A DNA stretch of 49,439 nt from Candidatus Cloacimonadota bacterium (GTDB lineage: Bacteria > Cloacimonadota > Cloacimonadia > Cloacimonadales > TCS61), in assembly GCA_030595905.1 (NCBI GenBank), contig JAUVLE010000002.1, forward strand, positions 1 to 49,439, written 5' to 3'. The notes beneath the pieces are model-generated. The model was given only the letters and a program-made list of their open reading frames with translations, did not search any database and was not told where the DNA came from. Position 1 is the first letter of the stretch. Every line of letters begins with the position of its first letter. The position numbers and the translations under genes are program-made. This document shows, piece after piece, positions 5,281-36,670 of the stretch.

Positions 5281-5306
5281 AATTCCAAATTACAAAGTTT
5301 TTATTT

Positions 5307-5375: not shown

Positions 5376-5432
5376 TTTAATTAATTTACGAAGTTATGTT
5401 CTTATTTGTGATTTTAAATAAGGGGAGAATTA

Positions 5433-7671: not shown

Positions 7672-7770
7672 GATGATGAAAATTGAATATTTAATATTGA
7701 ATATTGAAAATTTAGCTCCGTGTTCTCTTTGGTAATATTTTTCGTGTAAATTCGTGTAAATTCGTGGTTT
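7672..7770. repeat. Intergenic repeat: AATTGAATAT-type left end plus tandem TTCGTGTAAA units
   Basis: AAATTGAATATTTAATATTGAATATTGAAAAT, then TTCGTGTAAA TTCGTGTAAA TTCGTGGTTT at 7741-7770. Confidence 0.6.
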
Positions 7771-7786
7771 CAGAAAAAGGATAATT

Positions 7787-8212: not shown

Positions 8213-8230
8213 TATAATTAAGGAAAATAT

Positions 8231-16959: not shown

Positions 16960-18177
16960 GTGTTTAAAAAAGGAGTTTTAAAAGAATTATTCGATGGTTT
17001 GTTCGGTAAAACCTGGCCTATGTGGGTTGGTGGGATTTTGCTGGCAGTATTGAATATTCTTCTTTTCGTAATTAAATACCCCTGGGGTGGTAGCGGAGGC
17101 TATATTAATATTGGTCAGAACCTTTTCCAGACTCTCGGAGCAAAAAGTCTCGGAACAGGCACACCGATTAGTCTGCACACAGTTGCATTACTGAATATCT
17201 TCATCGTCCTTGGAGCGTTTATTTCATCTTTGTTTTCCAAAGAATTCAGTATTAAAGTAGCTCCAATTGGGGAACTCGTTAAAGGTCTTATTGGTGGTGC
17301 ATTGATGGGAATTGGTGCAACTGTAGGGATTGGTTGTACTATAGGAGGTTTCTTTTCTGGAGTTCCCGCACTTTCCGGAGGAGCTTTGTTCCTTTCTCTT
17401 GGATTTATGCTGGGAACTTTTGTAGCTCTCAGATATCTTCTTTGGGAGATGGAAGCACTTCCCAAAATCAGTATGGGAAAATCTTGCACATTAATTCCGG
17501 GAACCGGTAAAAAAACAGGTTGGCAAAGATGGCTCGGCTGGATCCTTATTGCTGTTGTGTTGTATATCTTTAGTAATTATACAGCCAAGGGAACAGCTCT
17601 TTCAAAAATTCTCGGCTGGCACATATTTATTGCACTTATTCTTGGAATAATCCTGCAAAGATCACGTTATTGTATTACTCGTGCTTTTAGAGAACCGTTT
17701 ATGACAGGTGAAGCAACGGCTCCGGTGGCAATAATTATCAGCGTTCTGGTTGTTCTTATCGGTTTTACTGTTCTTAAGTTTTTTGGTGTAGGAAATGCCG
17801 GAGAAACTGCAGTTCGAGCCATTGAAATGAAATCTGTTTATGCTAACTTCTGGTTAAGAGCTTTAATTGGCGGATTCATATTTGGCTTGGGAATGACCGT
17901 TGCAGGTGGCTGTGCAGTTGGAACACTCTGGCGTGCAGGAGAAGGTCATGTAAAACTATGGATGTCCGCACTTGGATTCACGATTATGGCACCTATTTCC
18001 AAGACATTCATTGTTCCATGGATTACAAAAATCATTCCAGAATCTCTGCGCAGTAAATTGTTTCTACCCGATGTTTTAGGTTATACCGGTGCAGTGGTTC
18101 TCATCCTGGTAATACTTCTGCTGTGGTATATGTTCGTGAAATGGAATGAAAAAACCGGAAAATTTTCCGCATTATAA
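16960..18177 (+). CDS. yeeE: YeeE/YedE-family sulfur-compound (thiosulfate-type) transporter
   Basis: Polytopic membrane protein with two repeated halves, each carrying GxGCxxG-type motifs (GIGCTIGG, AGGCAVGT). GTG start 6 nt after AAAGGAG. Confidence 0.7.
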   Translation: MFKKGVLKELFDGLFGKTWPMWVGGILLAVLNILLFVIKYPWGGSGGYINIGQNLFQTLGAKSLGTGTPISLHTVALLNIFIVLGAFISSLFSKEFSIKVAPIGELVKGLIGGALMGIGATVGIGCTIGGFFSGVPALSGGALFLSLGFMLGTFVALRYLLWEMEALPKISMGKSCTLIPGTGKKTGWQRWLGWILIAVVLYIFSNYTAKGTALSKILGWHIFIALILGIILQRSRYCITRAFREPFMTGEATAPVAIIISVLVVLIGFTVLKFFGVGNAGETAVRAIEMKSVYANFWLRALIGGFIFGLGMTVAGGCAVGTLWRAGEGHVKLWMSALGFTIMAPISKTFIVPWITKIIPESLRSKLFLPDVLGYTGAVVLILVILLLWYMFVKWNEKTGKFSAL

Positions 18178-18190
18178 AAAAGGAGGAGAA

Positions 18191-18730
18191 ATGAAAAAAA
18201 TAAATTATCTGATTATTCTTTCTGCGATCCTTCTTCTTGTCTCAAGTTGCGGAAAAGGATTTTCTGAAGGCGGATATTTTGCCAATGCAAAAGCAATGGT
18301 GAATGAAGCCAGAAAAGGCATCGAAGAAATTTCTTATGATGAATTGATCCGGAAAATGAAAAGTGGTGAATCAAAGTTCATAATAGATGTTCGAGAACCG
18401 GGTGAATTTGCAGAAGGATACATAAATCAGCCGGATGAAAACGACAAAAAAGAATATCCCGATGTAGTGACGAAAAACATTCCAAGGGGTTTATTGGAAT
18501 TTAAAATAGCCGATATAACTTTTTGGAAAAATCGCAAAAATATGCCGTCTAAAGATGATGAAATAATTATCTATTGTAAAAAAGGCGGAAGAGGAGCTTT
18601 AGCCACGGAAACCTTGATGAAACTTGGCTATAAAAATGTTCAAAACCTGAAAGGCGGTTATAAAAAATGGCTTAATCCAAATGCTTCAGAGGAAGATGAT
18701 ACTCCTGCAGAATCAGGCGGATGCGGCTAA
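18191..18730 (+). CDS. Rhodanese-domain lipoprotein
   Basis: Lipobox LLVSSC. Rhodanese active-site loop CKKGGRG. AGGAGG RBS before ATG 18191; a start at 18146 would overlap yeeE. Confidence 0.75.
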   Translation: MKKINYLIILSAILLLVSSCGKGFSEGGYFANAKAMVNEARKGIEEISYDELIRKMKSGESKFIIDVREPGEFAEGYINQPDENDKKEYPDVVTKNIPRGLLEFKIADITFWKNRKNMPSKDDEIIIYCKKGGRGALATETLMKLGYKNVQNLKGGYKKWLNPNASEEDDTPAESGGCG

Positions 18731-18749
18731 AAAAAAGGAGAAAAACATA

Positions 18750-18912
18750 GCAACTAACCCGAAACATATTTAAAAGAAGTTTCAATTAAGAAATTAAATA
18801 TGATGGGCAGGCAAGAACTAACATAACGAACTAAGAAAAATAAATTGTTTATCTTGTTCGTATTGCTTGTCGTGGCGTATCCGGCAACTGCCGGAGGAGA
18901 CTGGTTCGTTGC
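18750..18912. repeat. Degenerate IVS-like element copy
   Basis: GCAACTAACCC...GATGGGCAGGCAAG...CCGGCAACTGCCGG hairpin...GTTCGTTGC (18904-18912). Confidence 0.55.
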
Positions 18913-18929
18913 ATAAAAGGAGAAAATAG

Positions 18930-19865
18930 ATGAAAAAAAAATGGATGAAAAACTTAATAGTACTATCTATTATAGTTTTAGTCTTTGCAGGTTGTGCAAA
19001 AAAGAATGATCTTGATACATTATTAACTTACATGGATAGCAATGGAATGACAGTAAAAGAACTGTTCGATGGATGGATCATAAAAGCAGAAGATGTTCAC
19101 GATAACATGGCAAATTATTACTTAATGGATCTTCGTGGAAAAGATAAGAACAAAAACGAAATTATCGATTATGATGACGGTCATATTGCCGGAGCTGTTT
19201 TAACTTCTTTCTCTACAATTCTTAACGATGCTGAGAAAGCGGGAGAAAAAACGATCGTGGTTATATGCTACACAGGACAAACAGCCGGCCATGCTGTAAT
19301 GGCACTCAGACTTTCCGGATATGACGATGCTAAAGTACTTAAATGGGGTATGAGCGGATGGAACGGCGATTTTGATATATGGACAAAAAATTGCGGTCAA
19401 ATTGAAAGTGAAAACTGGGTTGCTGAACCTGTGGCAGAAAATATTGCATTTAAGTATATTCAACTGGAATGTGATGCAACGGAAGGTAAGGAAATGCTTA
19501 CCGAACGCGTTGGCGTTATGCTGAATGGCGGGTTTAAAGGAATAGGTGCGGACAAAGTTCTTAATAATCCTGCAAATTATTTTGTTAATAATTATTGGGG
19601 TGAAGAAGATGTTGATAAATATGGACACATCGACACTGCTTACAGGATAAAACCATTAGATGTACAAAATATAGGTTCTGATAAAACCATTGTAACTTAT
19701 TGCTGGACAGGACAGACTTCTTCTATGGTTACAGCTTATCTAACTGTTCTTGGTTATGATGCAGCAAGTCTTAAATATGGCGTGAACAGCATCATTTATG
19801 ATATGCTTGAATCTCATAAATGGGCTGCTTCAAAAGATTATGATTACGAAGTAACAGAAAAGTAA
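18930..19865 (+). CDS. Tandem-rhodanese-domain lipoprotein
   Basis: Lipobox VFAGC. Two rhodanese loops: CYTGQTAG and CWTGQTSS. Confidence 0.7.
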   Translation: MKKKWMKNLIVLSIIVLVFAGCAKKNDLDTLLTYMDSNGMTVKELFDGWIIKAEDVHDNMANYYLMDLRGKDKNKNEIIDYDDGHIAGAVLTSFSTILNDAEKAGEKTIVVICYTGQTAGHAVMALRLSGYDDAKVLKWGMSGWNGDFDIWTKNCGQIESENWVAEPVAENIAFKYIQLECDATEGKEMLTERVGVMLNGGFKGIGADKVLNNPANYFVNNYWGEEDVDKYGHIDTAYRIKPLDVQNIGSDKTIVTYCWTGQTSSMVTAYLTVLGYDAASLKYGVNSIIYDMLESHKWAASKDYDYEVTEK

Positions 19866-19883
19866 ATAAGATTAAATAATTAT

Positions 19884-19915
19884 CAGGGAGCTAAACCTGG
19901 CTCCCTGGTATTTTA
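19884..19915 (+). terminator. Putative Rho-independent terminator
   Basis: CAGGGAGC-8 nt-GCTCCCTG followed by GTATTTT. Confidence 0.55.
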
Positions 19916-19935: not shown

Positions 19936-21060
19936 ATGAAATCAAAAAAAGAATTAAGTTTTGAAAATCTACTCGATGAAGTTATTCATAAAGATCTATG
20001 TAACAAGTGTGGTGGCTGTGTTTCATTCTGCAGCGCAAATGGAATTAGCGCGCTGGAAATGGGAGAGGATGGTTTTCCCAGGTATGCCGATAAAGACAAA
20101 TGCCTGGAAGGTGGAATTTGTTACCTTATCTGCCCTCAAACTGTAAGCTTGGAAGAAGAATTAAAAAATAAATTTAATTGGAAATATCCAATTGGAAACT
20201 GGATAGATGTTTTTTCTGCTCGCTCTACTGATAATGAGGTCTTGAATGTTGCCACTGATGGAGGTGTGGTTACTTCGCTGTTAACATATCTTCTGGAAAG
20301 CAAAATAATAGATGGAGCGATAGTTTCTAAGAGAGTAGGAGTTTGTGGCAGGGAACCAATAATTGCGAAATCTCGGGCAGATTTGATCCAGGCTGCAGGT
20401 TCCAGTTTTGCAGAAACTGAACATCTGGATGAGCTGGGAAACATCTATTCTTCATGTTTTCCTGTAATTAAAATAATAAAAGAAGCTACCTCAAAAGTTA
20501 CTAAAAAATTGGCTCTTGTCGGCACGCCCTGTCAGATAAGAGCAATTCGCAAAATGCAAGTTCTGAATATTATTCCTGCTGATATGGTCATCTTTACAAT
20601 TGGGCTTTTCTGTTTGCAGTGTTTTACACTCAACGATCTGGAAAAAAAAGATTTCATAAAAAAGCTTAATATTAATATAGATGATATTCGAAAGGTAAAT
20701 ATAAAAGATAAACTGATACTGAATATGAAATCGGGTATCAATATACATATACCATTGGAAGAAATTGAGAAAATTGCACGACCTGCTTGTATTGCCTGTA
20801 CGGATTTTGCTAATGATTTTGCAGATATCTCTGTAGGTGGTATCGGTTCTGATGAAGGCTTCACAACAGTTTTGATCAGAAATTCTTTGGGCAGGCAGAT
20901 ATATTCCGAAGCTATGTACCAGGGCTATATTGAAAATAAATATTATCCATGTCCTAATGGTAGAAAAACAAGAGAAGAAGAATTGGCATATATTATTAAA
21001 GATTATGCAATAAGGAAAAAAATAAGAGCAGAGAAGAAATTGGATTCTCTTAAAAAATAA
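19936..21060 (+). CDS. FrhB/FdhB-family (F420 hydrogenase/dehydrogenase beta-like) flavo-Fe-S protein
   Basis: N-terminal CNKCGGCVSFC...CLEGGICYLICP and LALVGTPCQIRAIRK motif. Confidence 0.65.
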   Translation: MKSKKELSFENLLDEVIHKDLCNKCGGCVSFCSANGISALEMGEDGFPRYADKDKCLEGGICYLICPQTVSLEEELKNKFNWKYPIGNWIDVFSARSTDNEVLNVATDGGVVTSLLTYLLESKIIDGAIVSKRVGVCGREPIIAKSRADLIQAAGSSFAETEHLDELGNIYSSCFPVIKIIKEATSKVTKKLALVGTPCQIRAIRKMQVLNIIPADMVIFTIGLFCLQCFTLNDLEKKDFIKKLNINIDDIRKVNIKDKLILNMKSGINIHIPLEEIEKIARPACIACTDFANDFADISVGGIGSDEGFTTVLIRNSLGRQIYSEAMYQGYIENKYYPCPNGRKTREEELAYIIKDYAIRKKIRAEKKLDSLKK

Positions 21061-21095: not shown

Positions 21096-21983
21096 ATGGG
21101 AAATAAAAAAGTTGGTTCTGTACTGGTCGTAGGTGCAGGAATTGCAGGAATTCAATCTTCACTCGATCTGGCGAATTCCGGGTTTAAAGTTTATCTTCTC
21201 GAACAAACGCCGGCTATCGGCGGTGTTATGGCTCAATTAGATAAAACATTTCCCACAAATGATTGTGCGATGTGTATTGTATCGCCAAAATTAGTGGATT
21301 GCGGGAGACATCCGAATATTGAGATCATCACAAATGCCGAACTGGGAAAAGTGGTTGGTGAGGCTGGAAATTTCAAGGTTGTAGTAAAGAAAAAACCCAG
21401 ATATGTGGATGAAGATAAATGTACCGGTTGTGCAGCTTGTACTCAAAATTGTCCTGTATCAATTGCGCTTTATCCTGTTGAAAAAATATATATAAAATTA
21501 AAGGATGAAGACCTCAGAAGAGTTAAACCCATTTTGGAGAAGTATCGTGATCAGAAAGGTAATTTGTTGCCGATTCTTCAGCAGATAAACAAAGAATTCC
21601 GTTACCTTCCCGAAGATATTTTGAGATATGTATCTGATGAACTAAATGTACATCTTGCAGATATTTATAATATTGTTACTTTTTATAATGCTTTCAATCT
21701 TGAACCACGAGGAAAACATATCGTAACCGTTTGCATTGGAACTGCTTGCCATGTTCAAGGAGCTCCGGGACTTATAGAAGCTCTCGAAGATGAACTGGGT
21801 ATAAAGGTGGGAGAAACTTCAAAAGATATGAGTTTCACTCTGGAAACTGCCCGTTGTTTCGGTTGCTGCGGATTGGCTCCCGTGATCACGGTTAATGAAG
21901 ATGTACACGGAAAATTGAAACGAGCAGATATTCCCAGAATTGTTAAACATTATAAATCTATGGAGGAAAAACAGGATGCCTAA
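21096..21983 (+). CDS. Fusion: HdrA N-terminal FAD-binding segment (about 120 aa) + NuoE/HndA-type [2Fe-2S] domain
   Basis: Residues 1-121 parallel the first 121 residues of HdrA 8231 ([37 protein letters not shown]). The remainder is NuoE-like ([18 protein letters not shown]...[10 protein letters not shown]). Confidence 0.75.
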
Positions 21984-22359
21984 ATTAAATATTAAAGACC
22001 TCGAAGAAATAAGAAAAAAGGTTAGAAAAGCAGCGCTTCTGCGCGAGGGAATTTCTAATGCAAAGATAACCGTTCATATGGGAACCTGCGGTATAGCTGC
22101 CGGAGCAAGACCAATTATGAATGCTCTTATCAAAATAGTCGAAGAATCCGGGCGGGACGATGTGATCGTAACAACTTCCGGATGTGCCGGACTTTGCAGC
22201 CGAGAACCAATGGCTACAGTAGAACTAAAAGGGGAAACCCCTGTGAAATATGGTGATCTGACCGAAGATAAAATAAAAAAAATATTTTCAGAGCATGTAC
22301 TTAAAGGAAAGATCGTAGAAGAATATGCCCTTGTAATAGGAAGTGAGAGGGAACCCTAA
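21976..22359 (+). CDS. HndB-like thioredoxin-fold [2Fe-2S] ferredoxin
   Basis: [12 protein letters not shown]...[19 protein letters not shown] before ATG 21976; overlaps the upstream stop. Confidence 0.65.
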
Positions 22360-22397
22360 AAATGGATATCTTTTTAAGAATTGAGATTAGTTAAAAT

Positions 22398-22698
22398 AAT
22401 ATCCCCCGAACAGTCGCAAGCTCTCTACGGGGCAGGCAATATCGAACCCAGTGTAATAAAAAAAAGAAGATTACACGGGACAGGCACAGAATATCCAATG
22501 ATGAAGGAAAAAAATGAAAGAGAAGAATACGGAAACTAATCAGAAGAAGTTTGATTTGCAGGAACGATTTATTGATTGGTTTCTACTCATTCCTAAATCA
22601 CATTTGGGAATGCAATAATGGGAAAAAAGTATAAGGAAAATGGAGCGATAGCGACAAAAAAACTTGGATATTCCCTGTTGAGTATTGGATATTCAGAT
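22398..22698. repeat. Decayed copy of the four-helix-bundle cassette
   Basis: The 22398-22447 block matches 2870-2919. Perfect 11-bp inverted termini GAATATCCAAT (22489-22499) and ATTGGATATTC (22684-22694) bracket a truncated ORF. Confidence 0.7.
22514..22618 (+). pseudogene. Truncated four-helix-bundle protein gene
   Basis: MKEKNTETNQKKFDLQERFIDW matches the N-terminus MSKERKFDLQDRLIDY of 2932..3312, then diverges and stops after 34 codons. Confidence 0.65.
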
Positions 22699-22748
22699 TT
22701 TTTTATGTTTTTTATGTTGATCCAGTTAAAATATAAAAAGGAATCAAT

Positions 22749-24539
22749 ATGGCTTATAGAACTCATTTAATGGTATGTACCGGCACGGCTTGTGTTTCGT
22801 GTGGTGCTTTTAATATCAAGAAACTGTTAGAAGAAGAAATAAAAAAGCAGAAATTAGATAAAGAAATTCTGGTCGTTGGTACAGGTTGTCAGGGATTCTG
22901 TGCTCAGGGTCCTATTGTTGTAGTTCAACCGGATGATATTTTTTATCAATTGCTTTCTCCGGAAGATATTCCTTTCCTGGTAGAAGAACACTTTCTGAAA
23001 GGAAGACCTGTTAAAAAAATGATGTACACTCCACCCGGTGAAAAGATTCAAATTCCTACTGTTAGTGAAATTGGATTTTTCAGTAAACAGCGGTTGATCG
23101 CTCTCAGGAATAAGGGATTGATAGATGCCGAAAAGATCGATGATTATATTGGCAGGGACGGATATAATGCACTGATAAAAGTTTTAACATCGATGAGTTC
23201 CGAAGATATAATAAAAGAGATAAAGAATTCCGGGTTAAGAGGTCGAGGCGGCGGAGGTTTCCCAACAGGTTTGAAGTGGGATATCTGTAAAAATTCAAAA
23301 GGCGAACCCAAGTATATAATATGCAATGCCGACGAAGGTGATCCCGGTGCATACATGGATAGAAGTATCGTCGAATCCGATCCGCATGCAGTTATCGAAG
23401 GAATGCTGATAGGAGCAAAAGCAATAGGTGCACAGCAGGGATTTGTCTATATCAGAACGGAATATCCGCTTGCTATTCATAGATTGGAAGTTGCGATCGA
23501 GCAGGCACAAGAATATGGATTATTGGGAAAAGACATCCTTGGCAAGGGTTTTGATTTTGATCTTGAGATCAAACAAGGTGCAGGTGCTTTTGTCTGCGGA
23601 GAAGAAACATCCCTGATCCATTCGATTGAAGGAATATCACCCGAACCAAGTCAGAGACCTCCATTTCCAGCAGAATCCGGATTATGGGGAAAGCCGACTA
23701 ATATCAATAATGTGGAAACCTGGGCTAATGTTCCCAGAATAATTCTGCGTGGTGCAGATTGGTTTGCAGGTATTGGTACGGAGAAAAGCAAAGGAACAAA
23801 AGTTTTTTCTCTTGTGGGAAAAATAAATAATACAGGTTTGGTGGAAGTACCTATGGGAATCACTCTCAAAGAGATCATTTATGATATTGGCGGCGGAGTT
23901 CCCGGCGGGAAAAAATTTAAAGGTGTTCAAATCGGTGGTCCATCCGGAGGAGTTGTTCCTGCTTCTTTAATCGATCTGCCTGTCGATTATGAAAAATTAA
24001 CCGAAGTTGGTTCTATGATGGGCTCCGGGGGAATGGTGGTAGTTGATGAAGATACCTGCATGGTAGATCTTGCCAGATATTTCCTGGAATTTACCAGTGA
24101 TGAAAGTTGTGGAAAATGTGCAAGCTGTCGGGAAGGCAGTTCTGCAATGCTTGAAATTCTTACAAGAATAACAGAAGGAAAGGGGAAAGAAGGTGACATT
24201 GAATTCCTGGAAGAACTGGGATACGCAATAAAAGATGCTTCTCAATGTGGTCTGGGGCAAACACTTCCCAATCCGGTTCTTTCAACGATCGATAATTTCA
24301 GAGATGAATACGAAGCTCATATAAAAAATAAAAAATGTCCGGCTCATGTTTGCAAAGCATTAATTAGTTTTCATATCGACCCTGATAAATGTACCGGTTG
24401 TACAGTTTGTGCAATAAAATGTCCGGCTGATGCTATCTCCGGTAATCGCAAGGAACCTCATATTATCGATCAGGATAAATGTATTAAATGTGGTATTTGT
24501 TACACTGTTTGTAAATTTGATTCAGTGAAAGTGGAGTGA
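22749..24539 (+). CDS. NuoF/HndC/HydB-type NAD(P)H-binding FMN Fe-S subunit
   Basis: GLRGRGGGGFPTGLKW, ESCGKCASCREG, N-terminal thioredoxin-like 2Fe-2S domain, C-terminal CTGCTVCAIKCP/CIKCGICYTVC. Confidence 0.85.
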   Translation: MAYRTHLMVCTGTACVSCGAFNIKKLLEEEIKKQKLDKEILVVGTGCQGFCAQGPIVVVQPDDIFYQLLSPEDIPFLVEEHFLKGRPVKKMMYTPPGEKIQIPTVSEIGFFSKQRLIALRNKGLIDAEKIDDYIGRDGYNALIKVLTSMSSEDIIKEIKNSGLRGRGGGGFPTGLKWDICKNSKGEPKYIICNADEGDPGAYMDRSIVESDPHAVIEGMLIGAKAIGAQQGFVYIRTEYPLAIHRLEVAIEQAQEYGLLGKDILGKGFDFDLEIKQGAGAFVCGEETSLIHSIEGISPEPSQRPPFPAESGLWGKPTNINNVETWANVPRIILRGADWFAGIGTEKSKGTKVFSLVGKINNTGLVEVPMGITLKEIIYDIGGGVPGGKKFKGVQIGGPSGGVVPASLIDLPVDYEKLTEVGSMMGSGGMVVVDEDTCMVDLARYFLEFTSDESCGKCASCREGSSAMLEILTRITEGKGKEGDIEFLEELGYAIKDASQCGLGQTLPNPVLSTIDNFRDEYEAHIKNKKCPAHVCKALISFHIDPDKCTGCTVCAIKCPADAISGNRKEPHIIDQDKCIKCGICYTVCKFDSVKVE

Positions 24540-24543: not shown

Positions 24544-24906
24544 ATGAAGCTTATGGAAATAGAAGAAATACTTGAAGCAGAAGTTCTTACAGGAGAATAC
24601 GATCCTGAAATAGAAATAGAAATAGGTTGTTCATCAGATTTAATGAGTGAAGTTTTGGCTTATGGTGAACCATGTTCTATTCTCTTAACAGGCTTAACAA
24701 ATATCCAGGTTATCAATACTGCTAATGTAGCTGATATAAAACTAGTATGTTTTGTTATGGGAAAAATACCTGATGAAAAGATCATAAACTTAGCGAAAAA
24801 GAATGATATAACTGTATTTATAACAAAACTTACAACGTTTGAGAGTTGTGGGCGGTTGTATAAAAATGGGCTTAAGAGCTGTAGTTATTTTGATCTCGAT
24901 AAATAA
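24544..24906 (+). CDS. DRTGG-domain protein
   Basis: 120 aa. SDLMSEVL...LLTGLTN...VFITKLTTFESCGRLY pattern typical of the small DRTGG proteins found in HydABC/Hnd-type operons. Confidence 0.6.
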   Translation: MKLMEIEEILEAEVLTGEYDPEIEIEIGCSSDLMSEVLAYGEPCSILLTGLTNIQVINTANVADIKLVCFVMGKIPDEKIINLAKKNDITVFITKLTTFESCGRLYKNGLKSCSYFDLDK

Positions 24907-24908
24907 AA

Positions 24909-25841
24909 ATGGATAATAATAAAACAACCACCAAGATTCAAGAGCTGACTTATGAGCTGAAAATTGATGATGTAATGTGTAAGAATATTGAAACAGTCAG
25001 TTCAAAAATGCCTATTTCTCAATTAAGAGATGTTTTGTACAAAAAGCGAATTTCAGGAGTTCCAGTTGTAAATGATGATAAACTTGTTGGTATTGTAAGT
25101 ATTGAAGATTTTATTAAATGTATGGAACAGGAAGAAATGGATGCCTTAGTAGAAGATAAAATGACCAAAAATATAAAGACTCTTTATGCTGACGAACCAC
25201 TTGTTCATGCTGTTAAGAAATTTGAAAAATATGGATTTGGTCGTTTTCCTGTGCTTTCAAGGAAAGATAAAAAATTAGTGGGTATTATTACTAAAAGTGA
25301 TATTATTAAAGGAATACTAAAGAAATTAGAATCTGTTTATCATGATGAAGAGGAACGAAGATATCGAGCAAGTCATATCTTTAATGATATTGTTGCGGAT
25401 GAGGTGTTTCTAAAATTTCAATATTTTGTAGAAGGCAAGAACTTTGATAAAGCAGGAGAAGCTTCCACCGGACTAAAAAAAACGCTTTATAGGCTTGGTC
25501 TCTCACCGGATATTATTCGCAGAGCAGCAATTTCCACTTATGAAGCAGAAATTAATATTGTTGCATATACTGATGGAGGAGAAATAATAGCTTATATAGA
25601 TCCTCATCAAATTAAAATCATTATAATAGATAAAGGACCTGGTATTCCTGATGTTGAGAAAGCCTTGCAACCCGGCTTTTCCACTGCTCCCGGATGGGTT
25701 AGAGAATTAGGATTCGGAGCCGGCATGGGACTTCCGAATATCAAGAAATTCACCGATAAGATGACTCTAAGATCGACAGTTGAAAAAGGAACGCATTTGG
25801 AAATCATAATAAAGCTCAGTGATTATCGTAATGAAGATTAA
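24909..25841 (+). CDS. CBS-pair + HATPase-like (anti-sigma-factor-type Ser kinase-like) protein
   Basis: Two CBS repeats (ISGVPVVNDDKLVGIVS; FGRFPVLSRKDKKLVGIIT). C-terminal DKGPGIPD...GFGAGMGLPNIKK ATPase motifs. Confidence 0.65.
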   Translation: MDNNKTTTKIQELTYELKIDDVMCKNIETVSSKMPISQLRDVLYKKRISGVPVVNDDKLVGIVSIEDFIKCMEQEEMDALVEDKMTKNIKTLYADEPLVHAVKKFEKYGFGRFPVLSRKDKKLVGIITKSDIIKGILKKLESVYHDEEERRYRASHIFNDIVADEVFLKFQYFVEGKNFDKAGEASTGLKKTLYRLGLSPDIIRRAAISTYEAEINIVAYTDGGEIIAYIDPHQIKIIIIDKGPGIPDVEKALQPGFSTAPGWVRELGFGAGMGLPNIKKFTDKMTLRSTVEKGTHLEIIIKLSDYRNED

Positions 25842-25865
25842 TATTTATTTTCGATCTCACCTCAA

Positions 25866-25920
25866 TCCTCTCCTAAGAGGAGAGGAAGTTTTATTTTCCC
25901 TTCTCCTTGCAGGAGAAGGG
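25866..25920. repeat. Two perfect GA/CT-rich hairpins
   Basis: TCCTCTCCT-AAG-AGGAGAGGA (25866-25886) and CCCTTCTCCT-TGC-AGGAGAAGGG (25898-25920). Confidence 0.8.
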
Positions 25921-25953
25921 GTTAGGGGCTGAGGTTCTGAAAAAAGAGGGAAA

Positions 25954-26301
25954 ATGATGAATTTGAAAGATATTGTGAAAATGCTCGATCTGAAAGTGGT
26001 TTCCGGGGATATTGATAGAGAAGTGAGTGCAGGTTATTCAAGTGATCTGCTTAGTGATGTTATTGCAAATGCTCAAAAAGATAACATCTGGATCACTTTG
26101 CAAATTCATGTAAATATTGTGGCTGTGGCAAATTTACAGGAACTTGCAGGCATCATTCTTGTAAATGGACGACAACCTGAACAAATAACTTTGAAGAAAG
26201 CAGAACAGGAAAATATTCCTATTCTATTAACAGAATTACCCACTTTTGAAATTGTGGGGAAACTCTATGAAATGGGAATTCACGGGAACTCAATAAATTG
26301 A
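25954..26301 (+). CDS. DRTGG-domain protein, second copy
   Basis: Paralog of 24544..24906 (SSDLLSDVI, ILLTELPTFEIVGKLYEMG). Confidence 0.6.
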   Translation: MMNLKDIVKMLDLKVVSGDIDREVSAGYSSDLLSDVIANAQKDNIWITLQIHVNIVAVANLQELAGIILVNGRQPEQITLKKAEQENIPILLTELPTFEIVGKLYEMGIHGNSIN

Positions 26302-26390
26302 ATATTTAATATTGAAGATTGAATATTTACCCTTGTGCTTTCCGGGAATTCATTGTTACAAAAGTTAGTATTGTTAGTATTGTTCGTTGC
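26297..26390. repeat. AATTGAATAT-type intergenic repeat ending in GTTCGTTGC
   Basis: AAATTGAATATTTAATATTGAAGATTGAATATTT ... GTTAGTATTGTTAGTATTGTTCGTTGC. Its first bases supply the TGA stop of the DRTGG gene. Confidence 0.65.
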
Positions 26391-26431
26391 TAAAAGAAAG
26401 AAGGAATAAGAGATAATGAGGACTCAGCCGA

Positions 26432-27175
26432 ATGCTCAAAAAAATCAAAGCGGATTTGCATATTCATACCTGTCTCTCCCCGTGCGGTGATATGAATATG
26501 ACGCCTGCAGCGATCGTAGAAAAAGCAAGATCAAAAGGATTGGATGTGATCGGTATTTGTGACCATAATTCATCTGAAAATGTAGCTGCTGTAAAGAAAG
26601 CCGGAGAAAAAAATAATTTGAAAGTTCTTGGCGGAATGGAAGTTACGTCTAAAGAAGAGGTGCATATTCTTGCTCTTTTTGATGAAGAAAAAAAATTATC
26701 TGAACTCCAGGAAATCGTTTATGAAAATATGGAAGGTGTAAATGATGAGGAATTTTTTGGATACCAACTAATAGTAGATGAGCAAGGTGAGATCATCGAT
26801 CTTAATAAGAAATTATTGATTGGAGCAACCGACCTGACAGTCGAGAGAATAGTTGAGCTTATACATTCTTTAAATGGACTTGCTATTGCATCGCACGTTG
26901 ATCGTGAAAGATTCAGCCTGATCGGTCAACTGGGTTTTGTTCCGGAAGGATTGGATTTGGATGGTCTGGAATTATCACCGAGATATATGTCAGAAAAGAA
27001 AAAATTTGATTTTCCAATGTCATCGGGCTTACCTCTCGTCACTTTTTCCGATGCTCATTTTCCAGATGATATTGGTAAAACTTCAACCACTTTCCTGCTT
27101 GATGACATAACAGTGAAAGAGTTGAAAAAGGCATTAAAGAATAAAGATGGAAGATCTATCCTTGCATATTCTTGA
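26432..27175 (+). CDS. PHP-domain metal-dependent phosphoesterase
   Basis: ADLHIHTCLSPCG ... GICDHNS ... ASHVDR ... FSDAH His/Asp motifs. Confidence 0.75.
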   Translation: MLKKIKADLHIHTCLSPCGDMNMTPAAIVEKARSKGLDVIGICDHNSSENVAAVKKAGEKNNLKVLGGMEVTSKEEVHILALFDEEKKLSELQEIVYENMEGVNDEEFFGYQLIVDEQGEIIDLNKKLLIGATDLTVERIVELIHSLNGLAIASHVDRERFSLIGQLGFVPEGLDLDGLELSPRYMSEKKKFDFPMSSGLPLVTFSDAHFPDDIGKTSTTFLLDDITVKELKKALKNKDGRSILAYS

Positions 27176-27596
27176 TGTGGTCGAGAATTCGATCGAAGCA
27201 AATGCTTCGAAAATTGAGATAAAGATTATAGAGGAAAAAAACAAAGATTTACTCGCAGTCGAGATAAAGGATAATGGAAGAGGAATGAACAGGGAAACTA
27301 TTAACAAAGTGCTGGACCCGTTCTATACAACAAGAACGACACGAAGAGTAGGTATGGGACTTTCTCTCTTGGCTCAAGCTGCAAGAGAGAGTAATGGAAA
27401 TTTTGAGATAAATTCAAAGGTTGGTGTTGGCACAGAGGTTAAAGCTGTTTTTCAATATAGTCATATCGATCGTAAACCTATCGGAGATATGAAAAATACA
27501 CTTATAACCTTAATGGTCTCTCATCCTGAAATAAATTTTGTTTATGAACATCAAGATGAAGATGGTAATTATGTTCTGGATTCAAATGAAATATAA
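27147..27596 (+). CDS. HATPase_c-domain ATP-binding protein
   Basis: LDVVENSIEA (N box), IKDNGRGM (G1), GMGLSL (G2). Confidence 0.7.
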   Translation: MEDLSLHILDVVENSIEANASKIEIKIIEEKNKDLLAVEIKDNGRGMNRETINKVLDPFYTTRTTRRVGMGLSLLAQAARESNGNFEINSKVGVGTEVKAVFQYSHIDRKPIGDMKNTLITLMVSHPEINFVYEHQDEDGNYVLDSNEI

Positions 27597-27719: not shown

Positions 27720-30700
27720 ATGATTAATCTAATTATTAATGGAACAAAGGTTGAAGTAGAAGAAGGTTCCACAATTCTTCAAGCAGCAGATAAACTTGGT
27801 ATAAAGATTCCGACTCTATGTTATCATAAAGCATTGCCGGCTTATGGAGCTTGCCGGTTATGTGTCGTCGAGGTGATTCAGGGAAACGGGAAGACTTCTA
27901 TTCAGGCTTCCTGCACTTATCCTGCTCAAGAAGGTCTTATTATCAAAACCGATACGGAGCGAGTGATAAAAACCCGTAAAATTATGCTTGAATTGCTGCT
28001 GGCAAAATGCCCGGATTCTGAAGTTCTGAAGGATCTTGCTGAAGAAATGGGAGTTGGGAAACCAAGGATCGAACTGAAGAATGAAGATTGTATTCTCTGC
28101 GGATTATGTGTGCGAATGTGTAAAGACAGGATGGGAAAAGGAGCGATCGGTTTTGCAAATAGAGGGTTTAAACGTGTAGTTGTGCCTGCTTTTGATTCTC
28201 TGTCTGATGTATGCCAGACCTGTGGAGCCTGCGTTAGTGTTTGTCCAACCAAAACCGGAGTAAAATTAGAAAAGATCACGGAAAATGAACCTGTTCCGAT
28301 CCTATCTGAATTTGATGAAGGATTATTAACAAGATCAGCTATTTACATTCCGTATGCTCAGGCTGTTCCAAATTATGCCAATATCGATCCGGATCATTGT
28401 GTGCAGCTAACTACCGGAGAGTGCAAGATATGTACGGAATTCTGTGAAGCGGAAGCGATCGATTTTGACCAAAAAGAAAAATTTCTAAACCTGAATATCG
28501 GCTCGGTGATCATTGCAAACGGATCTGAAAAATTTGATCCAACTGCATTGCATGAATATGGTTACGGCAGGTTTAAAAATGTTCTTACAAGTATCCAGTT
28601 TGAAAGAGTATTGGCAGCTTCTGGCCCTTTTGAAGGTCATCTGCAAAGACCTGCTGACGGAAAAGTTCCCACCAAAATTGCATGGATACAATGTGTGGGT
28701 TCAAGAAACGAGAATTCTCATATGCCGTATTGTTCTTCTGTATGTTGTATGTACGCTCTCAAAGAAGCGATAATTGCCAAGGAGCATGTAAAAACCGTTG
28801 AACCTACAATTTTCTTTATGGATATTCGTGCTTACGGAAAAGACTTTGATAAATTCTATGATCAGGCAAAAGATGTGGGAGTAAGGTTTATTCGCTCACG
28901 AGTTGGAAAGATAAAAGAGATAAAAGAAACAGGAAACCTGGAATTATATTATGTGAAAGAAACCGGTGAACTTGAAATTGAAGAATTTGAAATGGTCGTA
29001 CTTTCTATCGGACTTACACCTACAAGAGATATTGTGGATGTAACCGATAAACTCGATGTTCGCCTTAATGAATTTAATTTTATAGAGAATACAGGAATGT
29101 CATCCATCCAGACGACCAGACCCGGGATTTATGTTTGCGGTCCGGCAGCTTCACCAAAAGATATTCCGGAAACTGTTATGCAGGCATCGGGAGCAGTTGC
29201 AGGTTCTGCGGAAATACTTTCGGAAGTTCGCGGAACCGAAATAACTGAAAAAGTTTATCCTGAAGAGATCGATGTAAGCGGGAAGAAACCCAGGATCGGA
29301 GTTTTCGTGTGCCATTGCGGTATCAATATCGGAAGCGTGGTAAATGTTCCTGAAGTAGTTAAATTTGCAAAAACCCTGCCCAATGTTGTCTATGTCGAGG
29401 AAAATCTTTTCACCTGTTCACAGGATACTCAGGAAAAAATGAAGGAAATAATCCATGAATATAAGCTTAATCGAGTTGTTGTTTCCTCCTGCTCGCCGAG
29501 TACTCACGAACCTTTGTTCCAGGAAACATTGAGAGAAGCCGGATTGAATCCGTATCTTTTCGATATGGCAAATATCAGAAACCAATGCAGCTGGGTTCAT
29601 AAAGATGATAAAGAAGGTGCCACTGAAAAGGCAAAGATCCTTACAAAAATAGCGATTGGAAAAGTAAGACTTTTAGAATCACTTCATTCGATTTCTCTTG
29701 ATGTTAGACAAACAGCTCTCGTTATAGGTGGAGGACTTTCCGGTATGACAGCAGCTCTTTCTGTTGCAGAACAGGGTTTTGAAGTAGCACTCATCGAAAG
29801 AAAAGATAAATTGGGTGGAAATCTTCACCGGCTTGCCGAATCTGTTGATGGAAAGAAAATCTCGGATTATCTCGCTGAACTCAATGATGAAATTAACAAG
29901 CATCCGCTCGTAAAAGTTTTCACGAATTCGGAAGCTAAGGAAATCGACGGATATATCGGAAACTATCAAACGAAGATATTTAATAAAAAGGATAATAAAG
30001 AAGCTGTCTTTGAACACGGAGTGATTATTATTACTACCGGTGCGAATGAATCTAAACCCGAAGAATATTTCTATGGGAAAAATAAGAATGTTATAACTCA
30101 TCTCGATTTTGAAATAGACTTTGAAGAAAATAAAAAGGTTTATCAAAAACTAAAAAATATTGTAATGATCCAATGTGTCGGTTCTCGTGATGAAAAGCGT
30201 CCTTACTGCTCGAGAGTTTGCTGCACTCAGTCTATAAAAAATGCTATTCGCTTGAAAGAATTAAATCCGAAAATGAACGTTTATGTTCTTTACAGGGATA
30301 TCAGAACTTATGGTTTTTATGAGAAATTCTATCAGAAAGCAAGAGAACTCGGTGTTATTTTCATCAGGTATGAAGAGGATGCAAAACCGGTCGTAGAAAT
30401 AGACGAAGAGCGTACGGTTCTGAATGAAAAAGGATTAACTTGTACGATTAAGGATCATGTTTTAAATCAGGAAGTTGTAATTTCTCCTGATAAATTGATC
30501 CTGGCTTCTGCAATGGTTCCGCAGGAAGATGCCGGAGAACTATCTCAGATGCTGAAACTTCCGCTTAATGAAGACAATTTCTTTATGGAAGCTCACGTTA
30601 AACTTCGCCCTGTAGATTTCTCTGCCGAAGGATTATTCTTAGCCGGTCTTGCTCATTCTCCAAAAGGAATCGAAGAGACAATTTCACAGGCAAAAGCAGC

Positions 30701-30992
30701 AGCAGAAAGAGCATGTTCCATTATCTGCTCAGATGAATATATGTCGGAAGCATATATTGCCGAGGTTGATCTGGATATGTGTGCGGGCTGCGGAATGTGT
30801 GTTGCCGTTTGTCCGTATGGAGCACCGGAGTTATTCTGGCAAAATGGGAAAGAATATGCTCATATAAATTCCGGACTTTGTAAAGGTTGCGGAAGTTGTG
30901 CGGCTGTTTGCCCTTCCGGTGCCATGCAGCAGCTCGGATATAAAGAAGAACAAACCCTGGCAATGCTTAATGAAGCATTGGAAGGTTGGTAA
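27720..30992 (+). CDS. hdrA: Fusion: HoxU/NuoG-N-terminal-like [2Fe-2S]+[4Fe-4S] domain + two-module HdrA lacking its first GxGxxG segment
   Basis: N-terminus INGTKVEV...LCYH...GACRLC, CILCGLCVRMC, CQTCGACVSVCPT. From about aa 197 it is colinear with HdrA 8231 residue 122 onward. The only GxGxxG is the second-module VIGGGLSGMT. Confidence 0.8.
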   Translation: MINLIINGTKVEVEEGSTILQAADKLGIKIPTLCYHKALPAYGACRLCVVEVIQGNGKTSIQASCTYPAQEGLIIKTDTERVIKTRKIMLELLLAKCPDSEVLKDLAEEMGVGKPRIELKNEDCILCGLCVRMCKDRMGKGAIGFANRGFKRVVVPAFDSLSDVCQTCGACVSVCPTKTGVKLEKITENEPVPILSEFDEGLLTRSAIYIPYAQAVPNYANIDPDHCVQLTTGECKICTEFCEAEAIDFDQKEKFLNLNIGSVIIANGSEKFDPTALHEYGYGRFKNVLTSIQFERVLAASGPFEGHLQRPADGKVPTKIAWIQCVGSRNENSHMPYCSSVCCMYALKEAIIAKEHVKTVEPTIFFMDIRAYGKDFDKFYDQAKDVGVRFIRSRVGKIKEIKETGNLELYYVKETGELEIEEFEMVVLSIGLTPTRDIVDVTDKLDVRLNEFNFIENTGMSSIQTTRPGIYVCGPAASPKDIPETVMQASGAVAGSAEILSEVRGTEITEKVYPEEIDVSGKKPRIGVFVCHCGINIGSVVNVPEVVKFAKTLPNVVYVEENLFTCSQDTQEKMKEIIHEYKLNRVVVSSCSPSTHEPLFQETLREAGLNPYLFDMANIRNQCSWVHKDDKEGATEKAKILTKIAIGKVRLLESLHSISLDVRQTALVIGGGLSGMTAALSVAEQGFEVALIERKDKLGGNLHRLAESVDGKKISDYLAELNDEINKHPLVKVFTNSEAKEIDGYIGNYQTKIFNKKDNKEAVFEHGVIIITTGANESKPEEYFYGKNKNVITHLDFEIDFEENKKVYQKLKNIVMIQCVGSRDEKRPYCSRVCCTQSIKNAIRLKELNPKMNVYVLYRDIRTYGFYEKFYQKARELGVIFIRYEEDAKPVVEIDEERTVLNEKGLTCTIKDHVLNQEVVISPDKLILASAMVPQEDAGELSQMLKLPLNEDNFFMEAHVKLRPVDFSAEGLFLAGLAHSPKGIEETISQAKAAAERACSIICSDEYMSEAYIAEVDLDMCAGCGMCVAVCPYGAPELFWQNGKEYAHINSGLCKGCGSCAAVCPSGAMQQLGYKEEQTLAMLNEALEGW

Positions 30993-31230: not shown

Positions 31231-32223
31231 ATGAAATTTTACTCAGTTTCAATGAAACAGTGGGTAGAAAACCTCAGCAATGTGGCTTCAGAATTTCAGA
31301 TTTTTGCACCCATCCTCCAAAACGATTTTTTAGATTATGAATTGATCACCCCCGATAATATCGAGCAAATTATTTATAATACAGCCAAACCTACCACACC
31401 ACTCAAGGCTTTCTTTTTCCCCGTAAAGGAAAACGTGGTTATAGATAAAAAAGCAGATAAACAGCGGGTGATAATCGGCGTTCCTTCCTGCGATCTGCAT
31501 GCGGTAAATCTGCTTGATAAGATATTTCTCGATAAAGATTTCCTGGATATATATTACAAAAAGAACAGGGAAAATACTATTCTCATCGGCACGGATTGTT
31601 ATAAGATCACCGATAGCTGCCACTGCACAAGTTACGGACTGAATCCCTATCCTGAGAAAAACAGCGACATCACCTTATCCATTGTAGAGGATATCGTCAT
31701 CCTGAATGTGCAAACCGAAAAAGGTGAGAAATTCCTGGAGAAAATTAAAGATGCGGAATTCAAAGAAGGAATAGCAGCAGAGGACAAGTTAAAGGAAAAA
31801 AGAGACGCCGTTATACAAGAACTCGATTCCAAAAATAAAGAACTACCCGATGCGGAAAGAACCAGGAAAGGGATCGAAAGTTCTGTCGATGAAGTCTGGA
31901 AAGAGTATGCAGAGAAATGCGTTTCCTGCGGAGCCTGCGCTGCTATCTGCCCGACCTGTCATTGCTTTCTTTTGATAGATAAAGAGAATTTTGAAAAGGT
32001 AAAAAACTGGGATAGCTGCCAGTATCCGGCTTTCGAGCGTGTTGCTGCCGGCGAAGACCCGCTGGGAAAAATTTATGAGCGGCTGAAGAACCGTTATCTT
32101 TGTAAATTTGTGCATAAACCCGATATGTTCGGTGAAATTGCCTGTACAGGCTGTGGAAGATGTATCGATGCCTGCATCGGCAAGATAGATAAGAACGAAA
32201 TTATTTTAAAGATATGTAAGTAA
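31231..32223 (+). CDS. FlxB / sulfhydrogenase-beta (HydB) / AsrA-like 4Fe-4S protein
   Basis: Paralog of 13715..14746. CVSCGACAAICPTCHCF and CTGCGRCIDAC. Confidence 0.7.
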   Translation: MKFYSVSMKQWVENLSNVASEFQIFAPILQNDFLDYELITPDNIEQIIYNTAKPTTPLKAFFFPVKENVVIDKKADKQRVIIGVPSCDLHAVNLLDKIFLDKDFLDIYYKKNRENTILIGTDCYKITDSCHCTSYGLNPYPEKNSDITLSIVEDIVILNVQTEKGEKFLEKIKDAEFKEGIAAEDKLKEKRDAVIQELDSKNKELPDAERTRKGIESSVDEVWKEYAEKCVSCGACAAICPTCHCFLLIDKENFEKVKNWDSCQYPAFERVAAGEDPLGKIYERLKNRYLCKFVHKPDMFGEIACTGCGRCIDACIGKIDKNEIILKICK

Positions 32224-32237
32224 CAAAAGGACAATTC

Positions 32238-34583: not shown

Positions 34584-34593
34584 GGAGATAGAG

Positions 34594-35007: not shown

Positions 35008-35020
35008 GGAACCGAATTCT

Positions 35021-36667: not shown

Positions 36668-36670
36668 ATT

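Follow-up and report, generated by a model that had tools for sequence, protein, structure and literature searches.

An HdrA flavin domain divided between a NuoE-type and a HoxU-like polypeptide in Candidatus Cloacimonadota and other anaerobes

HdrA-type and HydBC/Bfu-type enzymes embody two of the four known modes of electron bifurcation. A stretch of 49,439 nucleotides from a Candidatus Cloacimonadota bacterium (GenBank assembly GCA_030595905.1, contig JAUVLE010000002.1, positions 1 to 49,439 of the forward strand; hereinafter the window, that is, the whole stretch of DNA analysed) raises the question whether parts of the two can be built into one another. Gene 21096 (genes are denoted here by their first position in the window) encodes the N-terminal 121 residues of an HdrA fused to a NuoE-type subunit, and gene 27720, located downstream, encodes a HoxU-like domain fused to an HdrA that is missing this segment (Table 1). 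Below, the first product is called the fusion protein, consisting of the N-fragment and the NuoE part, and the second one the partner. We consider it likely that the two make up a single HdrA, in which the flavin adenine dinucleotide (FAD) domain of the first thioredoxin reductase-like module (TrxR1), along with the 2x[4Fe-4S] ferredoxin domain inserted in it, is assembled in trans.

The N-fragment parallels the start of an intact HdrA, as a sequence-only reading of the window had it: residues 3-123 align without gaps, at 53% identity, to residues 2-122 of the HdrA encoded by gene 8231 of the same window (E 8e-42) and cover positions 3-123 of a hidden Markov model (HMM) built from 45 intact HdrA N-termini. 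Fusion residues 9-127 match positions 143-261 of the solved methanogen HdrA (8rvv/8rvu, E 3e-45; 5odc, E 3e-42), and in this search of PDB sequences the N-fragment was about as similar to the methanogen protein as intact bacterial HdrAs are. A NuoE-type domain follows, with residues 144-287 also matching HydC (8a6t_C, E 3.5e-45). The motifs quoted in that reading are all present, including GIYVCGPAASPKDIPE, and the HdrA hallmark, GxGxxG together with the acidic residue of strand beta-2, is carried by the fusion protein instead of the 27720 protein. Of the 121 N-fragment columns in an alignment (A1) of 25 diverse fusions, 52 are invariant, compared with 27 of 174 in the NuoE part, where C213, C218, C254 and C258 are among the invariant residues; by this measure, the HdrA piece is the most constrained part of the fusion protein.

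The partner begins with a Fer2_4 domain (PF13510, residues 1-79) and a 2x[4Fe-4S] region, and the best solved match of residues 2-178 is 9mqx_A (E 3e-39), the BfuA-like subunit of a tungsten aldehyde oxidoreductase Bfu complex (PDB 9MQX). The rest is HdrA, 49% identical to residues 108-875 of the 8231 protein over 789 residues (BLAST) and matching the solved methanogen HdrAs with E values of 1e-171 to 1e-142. Residues 188-442 correspond to the second half of the inserted ferredoxin domain and the TrxR core of 5odc_A, the TrxR1 remainder aligning to residues 254-505 of that structure; residues 523-756 correspond to 5odc_A 3-237, that is, the N-terminal domain and the beginning of a second TrxR module, which has a GxGxxG of its own, and residues 932-1079 to 5odc_A 495-642, where the TrxR domain ends and the C-terminal ferredoxin domain follows. 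The single GxGxxG of the partner (G669-G674) belongs to module 2, and module 1, which retains the C-terminal FAD motif, has none, in agreement with the earlier description. Judging from these alignments, the partner HdrA is of the tandem, 'fused dimer' type, with the N-terminal segment missing from the first module only. In 27720 and in 20 homologous partners alike, the TrxR-like FAD domain of module 1 is thus not whole on one chain, which is what sets the system apart from other HdrAs.

Conservation suggests that the split module is functional and probably the bifurcating one, because C57 and C60 on the fusion protein and K348 and the PKDIP motif on the partner are invariant (K348 and P479-P483 in the 13 partners of the paired alignment). 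All cysteines of the BfuA/HoxU-like domain and of M3 are invariant in 21 partners, including 12 of 12 in the iron-sulfur (Fe-S) motifs M1, M2 and M3. In the HdrA-like subunit BamE of class II benzoyl-CoA reductase, the first TrxR module holds the bifurcating FAD beside Lys280, and a Cys59-Cys62 disulfide marks the post-bifurcation state (10.64898/2026.04.10.717634); these cysteines are probably the equivalents of C57 and C60, as suggested by the similar numbering and motif rather than by an alignment. In a number of loci (L and P numbers denote loci and proteins from our searches), an in-frame stop replaces the second cysteine of the FPTNDCxMC motif of the N-fragment (DCAM*IISPKLVE; L013, L018, L106, L109, L114, L117, L119, L131, L142 and L158), and the same is seen in many intact HdrA loci (L029, L035, L036, L049, L054, L056, L057, L063, L065, L066 and L074). 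We read this stop as a putative selenocysteine at the position of C60.

The sequence-only reading placed the start of HdrA homology in the partner at the equivalent of residue 122, such that the two fragments would be exactly complementary. By alignment, this does not hold: both the HMM and BLAST place the start at about HMM position 104-109, which leaves an overlap of 15 columns with the N-fragment. This apparent overlap of one motif arises because C165xxCxxCxxxCP of the partner (M2) aligns to the first Fe-S motif of HdrA. The system comprises four such motifs, M0 on the fusion protein and M1, M2 and M3 on the partner, all invariant, and the inserted ferredoxin domain of a canonical HdrA has two only. 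Given that M2 is also present in a stand-alone 204-aa BfuA-like protein (locus L072), with the 9mqx_A match spanning M2 as well, M2 would pair with M1 to form the BfuA ferredoxin unit, leaving M0 to pair with M3 as the inserted ferredoxin domain of HdrA. By motif counting, then, the fragments appear to be functionally complementary, in agreement with the earlier description; the view that the 15-column overlap refutes exact complementarity was dropped after the motif count and the finding of M2 in the stand-alone protein. The first motif of the inserted ferredoxin domain (C109-C119) is thus on 21096 and the second one (C227-C242) on 27720, in a region with low confidence in AlphaFold2 (AF2) models (predicted local distance difference test, pLDDT, below 50), and both M0+M3 clusters would take ligands from both chains.

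Whether the two genes always occur together, a question that the earlier reading had raised, was addressed in both directions. In the forward test, one genome per species was scanned for the fusion, and full-length fusions were detected in about 15 lineages at the phylum or class level, including bacteria (Cloacimonadota, Desulfobacteraceae, Desulfatiglandales, Desulfobaccia, Eubacteriales, Latescibacterota, Melioribacter, Spirochaetes, Fibrobacterota, Sedimentisphaerales, Acidobacteriaceae, Sulfotelmatobacter and Dehalococcoidia) and archaea (Altiarchaeales and Thermoplasmata). In all 21 loci with sufficient contig, NuoF and a full-length truncated partner are encoded downstream of the fusion, so that a fusion without its partner was not encountered there, and the 21 partners share the junction (CxxCGACxxxCPT, about 20 residues, SEFDxGL) and a module 1 without GxGxxG. 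In the converse test, metagenome contigs were scanned with the N-terminal 340 residues of the partner, which yielded 101 partner loci, 70 of these with the upstream region. An N-fragment is encoded upstream in 69 of the 70: fused to NuoE in about 48, as a separate open reading frame (ORF) directly 5' of nuoE in about 19 (for example, L096, L108 and L123), in a single chain with the HoxU domain and the HdrA remainder in one (L133), and free, with nuoE missing, in one (L131). Four of the separate N-fragments are located at the end of a 283-aa protein whose first part is an HdrA N-terminal domain (L107, L110, L144 and L158). Because the split persists without the NuoE fusion (L096, L108, L123 and others), the N-fragment seems to be needed in its own right. 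The arrangement thus recurs across many anaerobic bacterial and archaeal phyla.

The remaining locus, L157, encodes a divergent short partner (39% identity). Its positions 1156-9421 contain a nuoE without an HdrA segment, hndB and nuoF, followed by a GltD/NfnB-like ORF, a second nuoF, the 592-aa partner and an MvhD-like gene, an assembly that may represent a hybrid of another kind between the Nfn-Bfu and Hdr types. Short single-module variants of the partner adjoin HdrBC-like CCG proteins.

These distributions bear on two further explanations. That the N-fragment completes a different HdrA-like protein, or that 27720 is completed by a different fragment, is conceivable given the additional HdrA-type genes of the window (1549, 3631 and 8231) and the L157 partner with its missing N-fragment. 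We regard this as very unlikely: the other HdrA paralogs of the window possess their own GxGxxG and N-terminal segment, the linkage of N-fragment and truncated partner is maintained in 21 of 21 and 69 of 70 loci from distant phyla, and the nearest-neighbour groupings of the two pieces agree. Still less credible is an artefact or decay, whether through mis-assembly, a frameshift or pseudogenisation of hdrA. The window is not free of sequence or frame problems, as the disruption near the 3' end of gene 8231 demonstrates; however, both architectures are found in independent assemblies (at least 120 fusion clusters, about 90 partner clusters among those listed, and 100 loci), with intact frames and strong conservation, which effectively refutes this possibility. 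The best 120 fusion clusters listed are about 260-330 aa long (86-100% coverage, 57-96% identity), with source names that include Cloacimonetes, Delongbacteria, WOR-3 and Thermoplasmata, and the closest relatives among the matches listed, at 95% identity, are Candidatus Cloacimonetes. Of the best 120 partner matches listed, about 90 reach full length (1075-1135 aa, with coverage of about 100%), and fusion and partner clusters pair on contigs of equal size, for example, 64990, 57970, 374764, 146537 and 23494 nt.

With the single-chain ORF of L133 as the query, we identified proteins in which the two pieces of HdrA are not separated, in effect a natural counterpart of a linker construct (P0241-P0245; the single-chain loci are L133:3310-5127 and L161:4787-7438). 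P0241 and P0242 (870 and 883 aa) consist of an HdrA N-terminal domain, the N-fragment, a linker, a HoxU-like domain, the HdrA remainder and a C-terminal ferredoxin domain; P0243-P0245 (660-666 aa) comprise the N-fragment, linker, HoxU-like domain and module-1 remainder. All four motifs M0-M3 are retained, and the HoxU/BfuA-like [2Fe-2S] + 2x[4Fe-4S] domain sits inside the inserted ferredoxin domain, at the point where the HdrA of the window is broken. No nuoE or nuoF was seen near L133, L161 or P0241-P0245. P0242 adjoins an HdrBC-like CCG protein. The neighbours of P0244 (660 aa) are a gene of the AOR family, a Fer4_11 gene and, encoded separately, an HdrA module 2 (562 aa), a set that resembles a Bam/WOR-type cluster.

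An AF2 model of P0244, obtained from a curated 46-row alignment of trimmed sequences (A5), superposes as one body on HdrA 8rvu_a, with a template modelling (TM) score of 0.91 normalised to the 427-residue target (Foldseek); it also matches 5odh_A (E 4e-45) and the minimal sHdrA 6tjr_A (TM 0.89), and the inserted part matches 9mqx_A at 42% identity. The mean pLDDT values of successive 10-residue blocks of its N-fragment are 91, 89, 97, 77, 39, 53, 84, 94, 94, 94, 80 and 60, and those of the linker are in the range of 26-39. According to this model, both pieces of HdrA can be accommodated in a single canonical fold, with the HoxU-like domain looped out of it, which falls short of proving assembly of the window pair. 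When the window fusion was modelled alone from alignment A1, the NuoE part reached 80-90, and the N-fragment blocks had means of 53, 76, 80, 69, 50, 43, 60, 72, 59, 55, 37 and 35; the contrast between the two models is only suggestive, given the different alignments used.

The single-chain relatives and the models help to weigh the most serious alternative, under which the N-fragment is an autonomous accessory domain of NuoE and module 1 of 27720 a cofactor-less or degenerate scaffold, without any trans-complementation. The beta-alpha-beta core of the N-fragment is indeed moderately confident on its own (pLDDT 76-80 at residues 11-30), a TrxR module can be purely structural, as is the non-bifurcating TrxR2 of BamE (10.64898/2026.04.10.717634), and M2 of the partner can be aligned to the first Fe-S motif of HdrA. 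Against this, the 121-residue piece lacks most of a Rossmann-type FAD fold, with residues 48-62 and 100-127 below pLDDT 50 when modelled alone; K348 and PKDIP, on the FAD side of the partner, are invariant, which is not expected of a degenerate module; single-chain relatives hold both pieces in one protein; and free-standing N-fragment ORFs exist without fusion to NuoE. On balance, we find this explanation improbable.

Assembly in trans, the reading that we favour, implies a specific complex. The window encodes the entire Bfu trio, namely, a HydB-type NuoF (gene 22749), a NuoE-type subunit and a BfuA-type Fe-S domain, and the 21096, 27720 and 22749 proteins would form one complex. One piece of HdrA, residues 1-121 of 21096 (the beta-alpha-beta unit with GxGxxG, C57xxC60 and M0), would be borne on the N-terminus of the BfuC-type subunit, and the other one, consisting of the rest of TrxR1, the N-terminal-domain-like segment, the second TrxR module and the C-terminal ferredoxin domain, on the C-terminus of the BfuA/HoxU-like domain. 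The two would assemble around FAD and two shared [4Fe-4S] clusters, and the split domain would clamp HdrA onto the Bfu-type module that handles reduced nicotinamide adenine dinucleotide (NADH) and ferredoxin. The low-potential branch of canonical HdrA, and likewise of BamE, includes the inserted ferredoxin domain. In the complex proposed here, electrons would travel between the Bfu core (NADH, ferredoxin) and HdrA by way of the BfuA clusters and this inserted domain, and no MvhD-type adaptor would take part. The geometry of the assembly is plausible in view of the Bam structure, where the HydC-like BamG touches the BfuA-like BamI with its N-terminal helical bundle (10.64898/2026.04.10.717634). 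The adjacent AsrAB/Flx-like proteins 31231 and 32238 and the FrhB-like protein 19936 would be candidates for the partner that handles a third substrate. More tentatively, we suggest that these loci represent a widespread class of hard-wired double-bifurcation complexes ('Hdr-Bfu'), with the FAD site and two [4Fe-4S] clusters at the interface of two chains and the BfuA-like module placed there.

Several observations weigh against this scheme. The two genes are parted by about 6 kb and by a terminator-like hairpin at 25866-25886, so co-expression is assumed; the L157 partner has no N-fragment within 7 kb upstream; and the HMM and BLAST results also permit M2 of the partner to serve the inserted ferredoxin domain of HdrA. 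In addition, it is the relative P0244, not the window pair, that provides the AF2 support; the two runs were based on different alignments; and the Fe-S regions of P0244 are below pLDDT 50, the sharing of clusters being deduced from motif counting.

Compared with the methanogen HdrA (MvhAGD-HdrABC, Fdh-Hdr, Elp-Hdr; 5ODC, 7BKB, 8RVU), the window system has in common GxGxxG, FPTxDCxxC, CVGSR/YCSxxCC, the CCMYAxK lysine, PKDIP, the N-terminal domain, the C-terminal ferredoxin domain and, probably, the inserted 2x[4Fe-4S] domain. It differs in that the fold is distributed between two chains, broken after the first Fe-S motif of the inserted domain with a HoxU/BfuA-like domain at the break, and in the tandem two-module form. 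With the Bfu enzymes (HydABC, NfnABC/StnABC, WOR-Bfu; PMC9304861; 8A6T, 9BOV, 9MQX), the window shares the BfuB, BfuC and BfuA-like parts, the fusion of the BfuA-like domain to a catalytic module, as in the 'Type 1' Bfu enzymes (PMC9304861), and regulator genes in the style of HydABC operons (DRTGG, PHP, HATPase); unlike in these enzymes, the module on BfuA is HdrA, itself bifurcating, and part of this HdrA is fused to BfuC. No 'Hdr-Bfu' type is included in the Bfu classification, in the text or the supplement (PMC9304861).

The closest solved precedent is class II benzoyl-CoA reductase (BamBCDEFGHI), where the HydBC-like BamGHI and the tandem 'fused HdrA dimer' BamE belong to one complex, and where the bifurcating FAD resides in TrxR1 of BamE and a Cys-x2-Cys pair undergoes cyclic disulfide formation (10.64898/2026.04.10.717634). 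Its authors state that no earlier report had placed two bifurcation modules in a single complex (10.64898/2026.04.10.717634). The Bam modules are separate, complete chains that are bridged by the MvhD-like BamF and serve a tungsten AOR subunit, whereas in the window the link is covalent, via the split FAD domain. The AFOR and FlpD/MvhD families are absent among the 40 window ORFs scanned with Pfam, and the single-chain relative P0244, unlike the window, adjoins an AOR-family gene. In Bam, BamI feeds the C-terminal ferredoxin domain (10.64898/2026.04.10.717634), so the wiring of the window would differ from that of Bam if the inserted ferredoxin domain holds as the low-potential branch.

A further parallel is FlxABCD-HdrABC of sulfate reducers and syntrophs, in which HdrA is coupled to NAD(P)H-oxidising flavo-Fe-S proteins; in the window, 31231 and 32238 resemble FlxB/C and FlxA, respectively (Pfam: Fer4_22; FAD_binding_6, NAD_binding_1 and DHODB_Fe-S_bind). 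Flx proteins are unrelated to NuoEF, and Flox-Hdr has an intact HdrA, HdrBC and an MvhD-like FlxD. Beside the split HdrA of the window, the Pfam scan of the window ORFs detected no HdrBC (including the CCG domain of HdrB) and no FlxD/MvhD, the FlxA-like and FlxB/C-like genes being present at 31231-33059. A count of MvhD-like genes by tblastn proved uninformative: the matches lay in the partner's own N-terminal-domain-like segment.

In the literature that we searched, including the Bfu classification and a survey of archaeal gene fusion and fission that discusses HdrA, neither the split, nor the fusion of HdrA pieces to BfuC and BfuA, nor the insertion of a HoxU-like domain in HdrA is described, although an earlier mention is possible. 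The parts come from known families, HdrA and Bfu; their division and fusion is the new aspect, one of high interest for the electron-bifurcation field. If the pair is assembled as we infer, covalently coupled Hdr-Bfu machines would be common in uncultured anaerobes, in particular, Cloacimonadota, Desulfobacterota, Acidobacteriota, Spirochaetota, Latescibacterota, Fibrobacterota, WOR-3, Altiarchaeales and Thermoplasmata. A natural flavin site, and probably Fe-S clusters too, would then be formed between two chains, providing a compact and genetically defined system in which to study the coupling of two bifurcation sites. The current annotations of the two genes, 'NADH:ubiquinone oxidoreductase subunit E' for the fusion and 'FAD-dependent oxidoreductase' or 'HdrA' for the partner, hide their relationship from metabolic reconstructions.

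How could such an arrangement have evolved? The sequence-only reading proposed that a diaphorase operon had been inserted in frame into an ancestral hdrA in one event. This would yield the arrangement of the window directly, but three other states that we observed are left unexplained, and the insertion is not needed. In the first of these, an unfused hdrA-nuoE-nuoF-hoxU array (L072, 2809-9723, from a Dehalococcoidia metagenome-assembled genome), hdrA is intact and the 204-aa hoxU-like gene stands alone; directly 3', positions 10001-11161 of L072 contain a second N-fragment, a NuoE match and nuoF, after which the contig ends. The second state is the single-chain HdrA with the HoxU-like insert only (L133, P0241-P0245), the third one a free-standing N-fragment 5' of nuoE-nuoF and the partner (L096 type), and the fourth the N-fragment fused to NuoE, as in the window. 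A stepwise history that includes domain insertion, gene fission or recruitment of nuoEF, and a secondary fusion of the N-fragment with NuoE appears to fit these states better, and the series can be read equally well in either direction. When the N-fragment and the module-1 remainder were each placed in a neighbour-joining tree with the 45 intact HdrAs, neither group formed a clean clade, so that the trees polarise neither a single origin nor the direction, fission or fusion; only the matching nearest-neighbour groupings are usable.

Table 1. Coordinates of the split HdrA, its domains and motifs, and associated genes in the window
Feature	Position	Strand	Basis and remarks
HdrA, paralogous, module 1 unsplit	8231-10879	+	internal reference
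FrhB/FdhB-family flavo-Fe-S protein	19936-21060	+	PF04432/PF04422; directly 5' of fusion
HdrA(1-121)::NuoE/HydC/BfuC fusion gene	21096-21983	+	295 aa; ORF, Pfam, PDB sequence search, homolog clusters
HdrA N-fragment, aa 1-121	21096-21458	+	first TrxR-like FAD-domain segment and first half of inserted ferredoxin domain
Dinucleotide-binding motif G13-A-G15-I-A-G18 (GxGxxG)	21132-21149	+	G13, G15, G18 invariant in 25 fusions
Acidic E35, end of beta-2	21198-21200	+	E or D in 25/25 fusions
C57-A-M-C60 pair of FPTNDCxMC motif	21264-21275	+	C57, C60 invariant in 25 fusions
Fe-S motif M0: C109-x2-C112-x2-C115-x3-C119-P120	21420-21455	+	four Cys invariant; aligns to first motif of HdrA inserted ferredoxin domain
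NuoE/HydC/BfuC thioredoxin-like [2Fe-2S] domain, aa 144-287	21525-21956	+	PF01257 (2Fe-2S_thioredx), E 4e-49
HndB-like small thioredoxin-like protein	21940-22359	+	weak PF01257; kept between fusion gene and nuoF in many loci
NuoF/HydB/BfuB-like subunit	22749-24539	+	Pfam; between fusion and partner in all assessable loci
Five regulator-like genes (DRTGG, CBS+HATPase, DRTGG, PHP, HATPase)	24544-27596	+	Pfam; between nuoF and partner gene
BfuA/HoxU-like::HdrA(~122 to end) partner gene	27720-30992	+	1090 aa; ORF, BLAST, Pfam, PDB sequence search
BfuA/HoxU-like domain, aa 1-178	27720-28253	+	[2Fe-2S] C34, C45, C48, C65; M1 C124-C134; M2 C165-C175-P176
HdrA TrxR1 remainder, aa 195-520	28302-29279	+	M3, CVGSR...YCSSVCC cluster motif, K348, C-terminal FAD motif
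Fe-S motif M3: C227, C235, C238, C242	28398-28445	+	
K348 of CCMYALK motif	28761-28763	+	aligns to K409 of CCMYAMK in 5odc_A
C-terminal FAD motif G469-E484	29124-29171	+	contains PKDIP P479-P483
N-terminal-domain-like segment (aa 523-650), full second TrxR module, C-terminal 2x[4Fe-4S]	29286-30992	+	Pfam, 5odc_A alignment
AsrA/HydB/FlxB-like Fe-S protein	31231-32223	+	Pfam
AsrB/HydG/FlxA-like FAD/NAD(P)/[2Fe-2S] protein	32238-33059	+	Pfam

The gene order given in the sequence-only reading, N-fragment::nuoE, hndB, nuoF, regulators, hoxU::HdrA remainder, was borne out by the Pfam assignments. The NuoF subunit contains PF01512 (FMN/NADH), SLBB and PF10589 (NADH_4Fe-4S) domains, a thioredoxin-like 2Fe-2S domain (PF01257) at residues 4-79 and, at the C-terminus, 2x[4Fe-4S] (two Fer4 at residues 542-591). 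The hndB-like gene is separated from nuoF by about 390 nt (22360-22748) that contain no ORF longer than 57 aa. The regulator block is also found in L001, L005, L008, L014, L020, L021 and others and is absent from many other loci. The FrhB/FdhB-like protein, also encoded near the partner in L021 and L118, is possibly an additional subunit. The 31231/32238-type pair recurs in L003, L004, L007, L009, L019, L023, L096 and L110, and its products are candidate further redox partners. A scan of the window for promoters and terminators found promoter-like sites to be no more common than in shuffled sequence and detected two noteworthy hairpins, the one inside the regulator block mentioned above and another, at 19881-19910, that precedes the FrhB-like gene.

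The frame of gene 8231, which is otherwise intact, breaks near residue 880, ending in PLNEDECLWKLT before a stop, and an overlapping ORF in another frame (10858-11277) continues with MFMEAHVKLRPVDF and includes the last FAD motif and the C-terminal ferredoxin domain. This interruption is due to a frameshift or a sequencing error, or it marks a second natural split in an HdrA FAD domain, because a related 1018-aa protein, P0179, runs unbroken across the same point. A third HdrA set consists of two genes, 1549-2841 (430 aa, module-1-like, 36% identical to residues 6-428 of the 8231 protein) and 3631-5280 (549 aa, in which a TrxR module lies between an N-terminal stretch and a C-terminal ferredoxin domain), between which lies a gene of the 23S-rRNA-intervening-sequence family (2932-3312). 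The module-1-like and module-2 genes are separate, and thus the tandem HdrA also occurs split between modules; the same layout recurs after P0244 in its contig (660 aa then 562 aa).

In Cloacimonadota, Delongbacteria and Marinimicrobia, there are, in addition, HdrAs of about 1480 aa that are 70-80% identical to the HdrA part of the partner (P0163, P0171, P0172, P0174-P0176 and P0180-P0186). They carry additional Pfam domains (PF14691), which we take to be a GltD/NfnB-type NAD(P)H domain in an 'HdrL'-like architecture; this form would be another way to attach a pyridine-nucleotide module to the same HdrA lineage.

Directly 5' of the operon, at 16960-19865, are genes for a YeeE/YedE-type sulfur-transport protein and two rhodanese-domain proteins, with the strong hairpin at 19881-19910 located between these sulfur-related genes and the operon; this is a hint of a connection between the neighbouring Hdr systems and sulfur compounds. 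Immediately 3' of the operon, at 33654-43525, lies a cluster for a group-4 Mbh/Mrp-type membrane-bound [NiFe] hydrogenase, which encodes NuoH-, NuoB-, NuoC- and NuoD/NiFe large-subunit-like proteins, MbhD/E, MnhB, a NuoK-like protein and MnhE, as well as two antiporter-like subunits, a 2x[4Fe-4S] protein and a HycI-type maturation protease.

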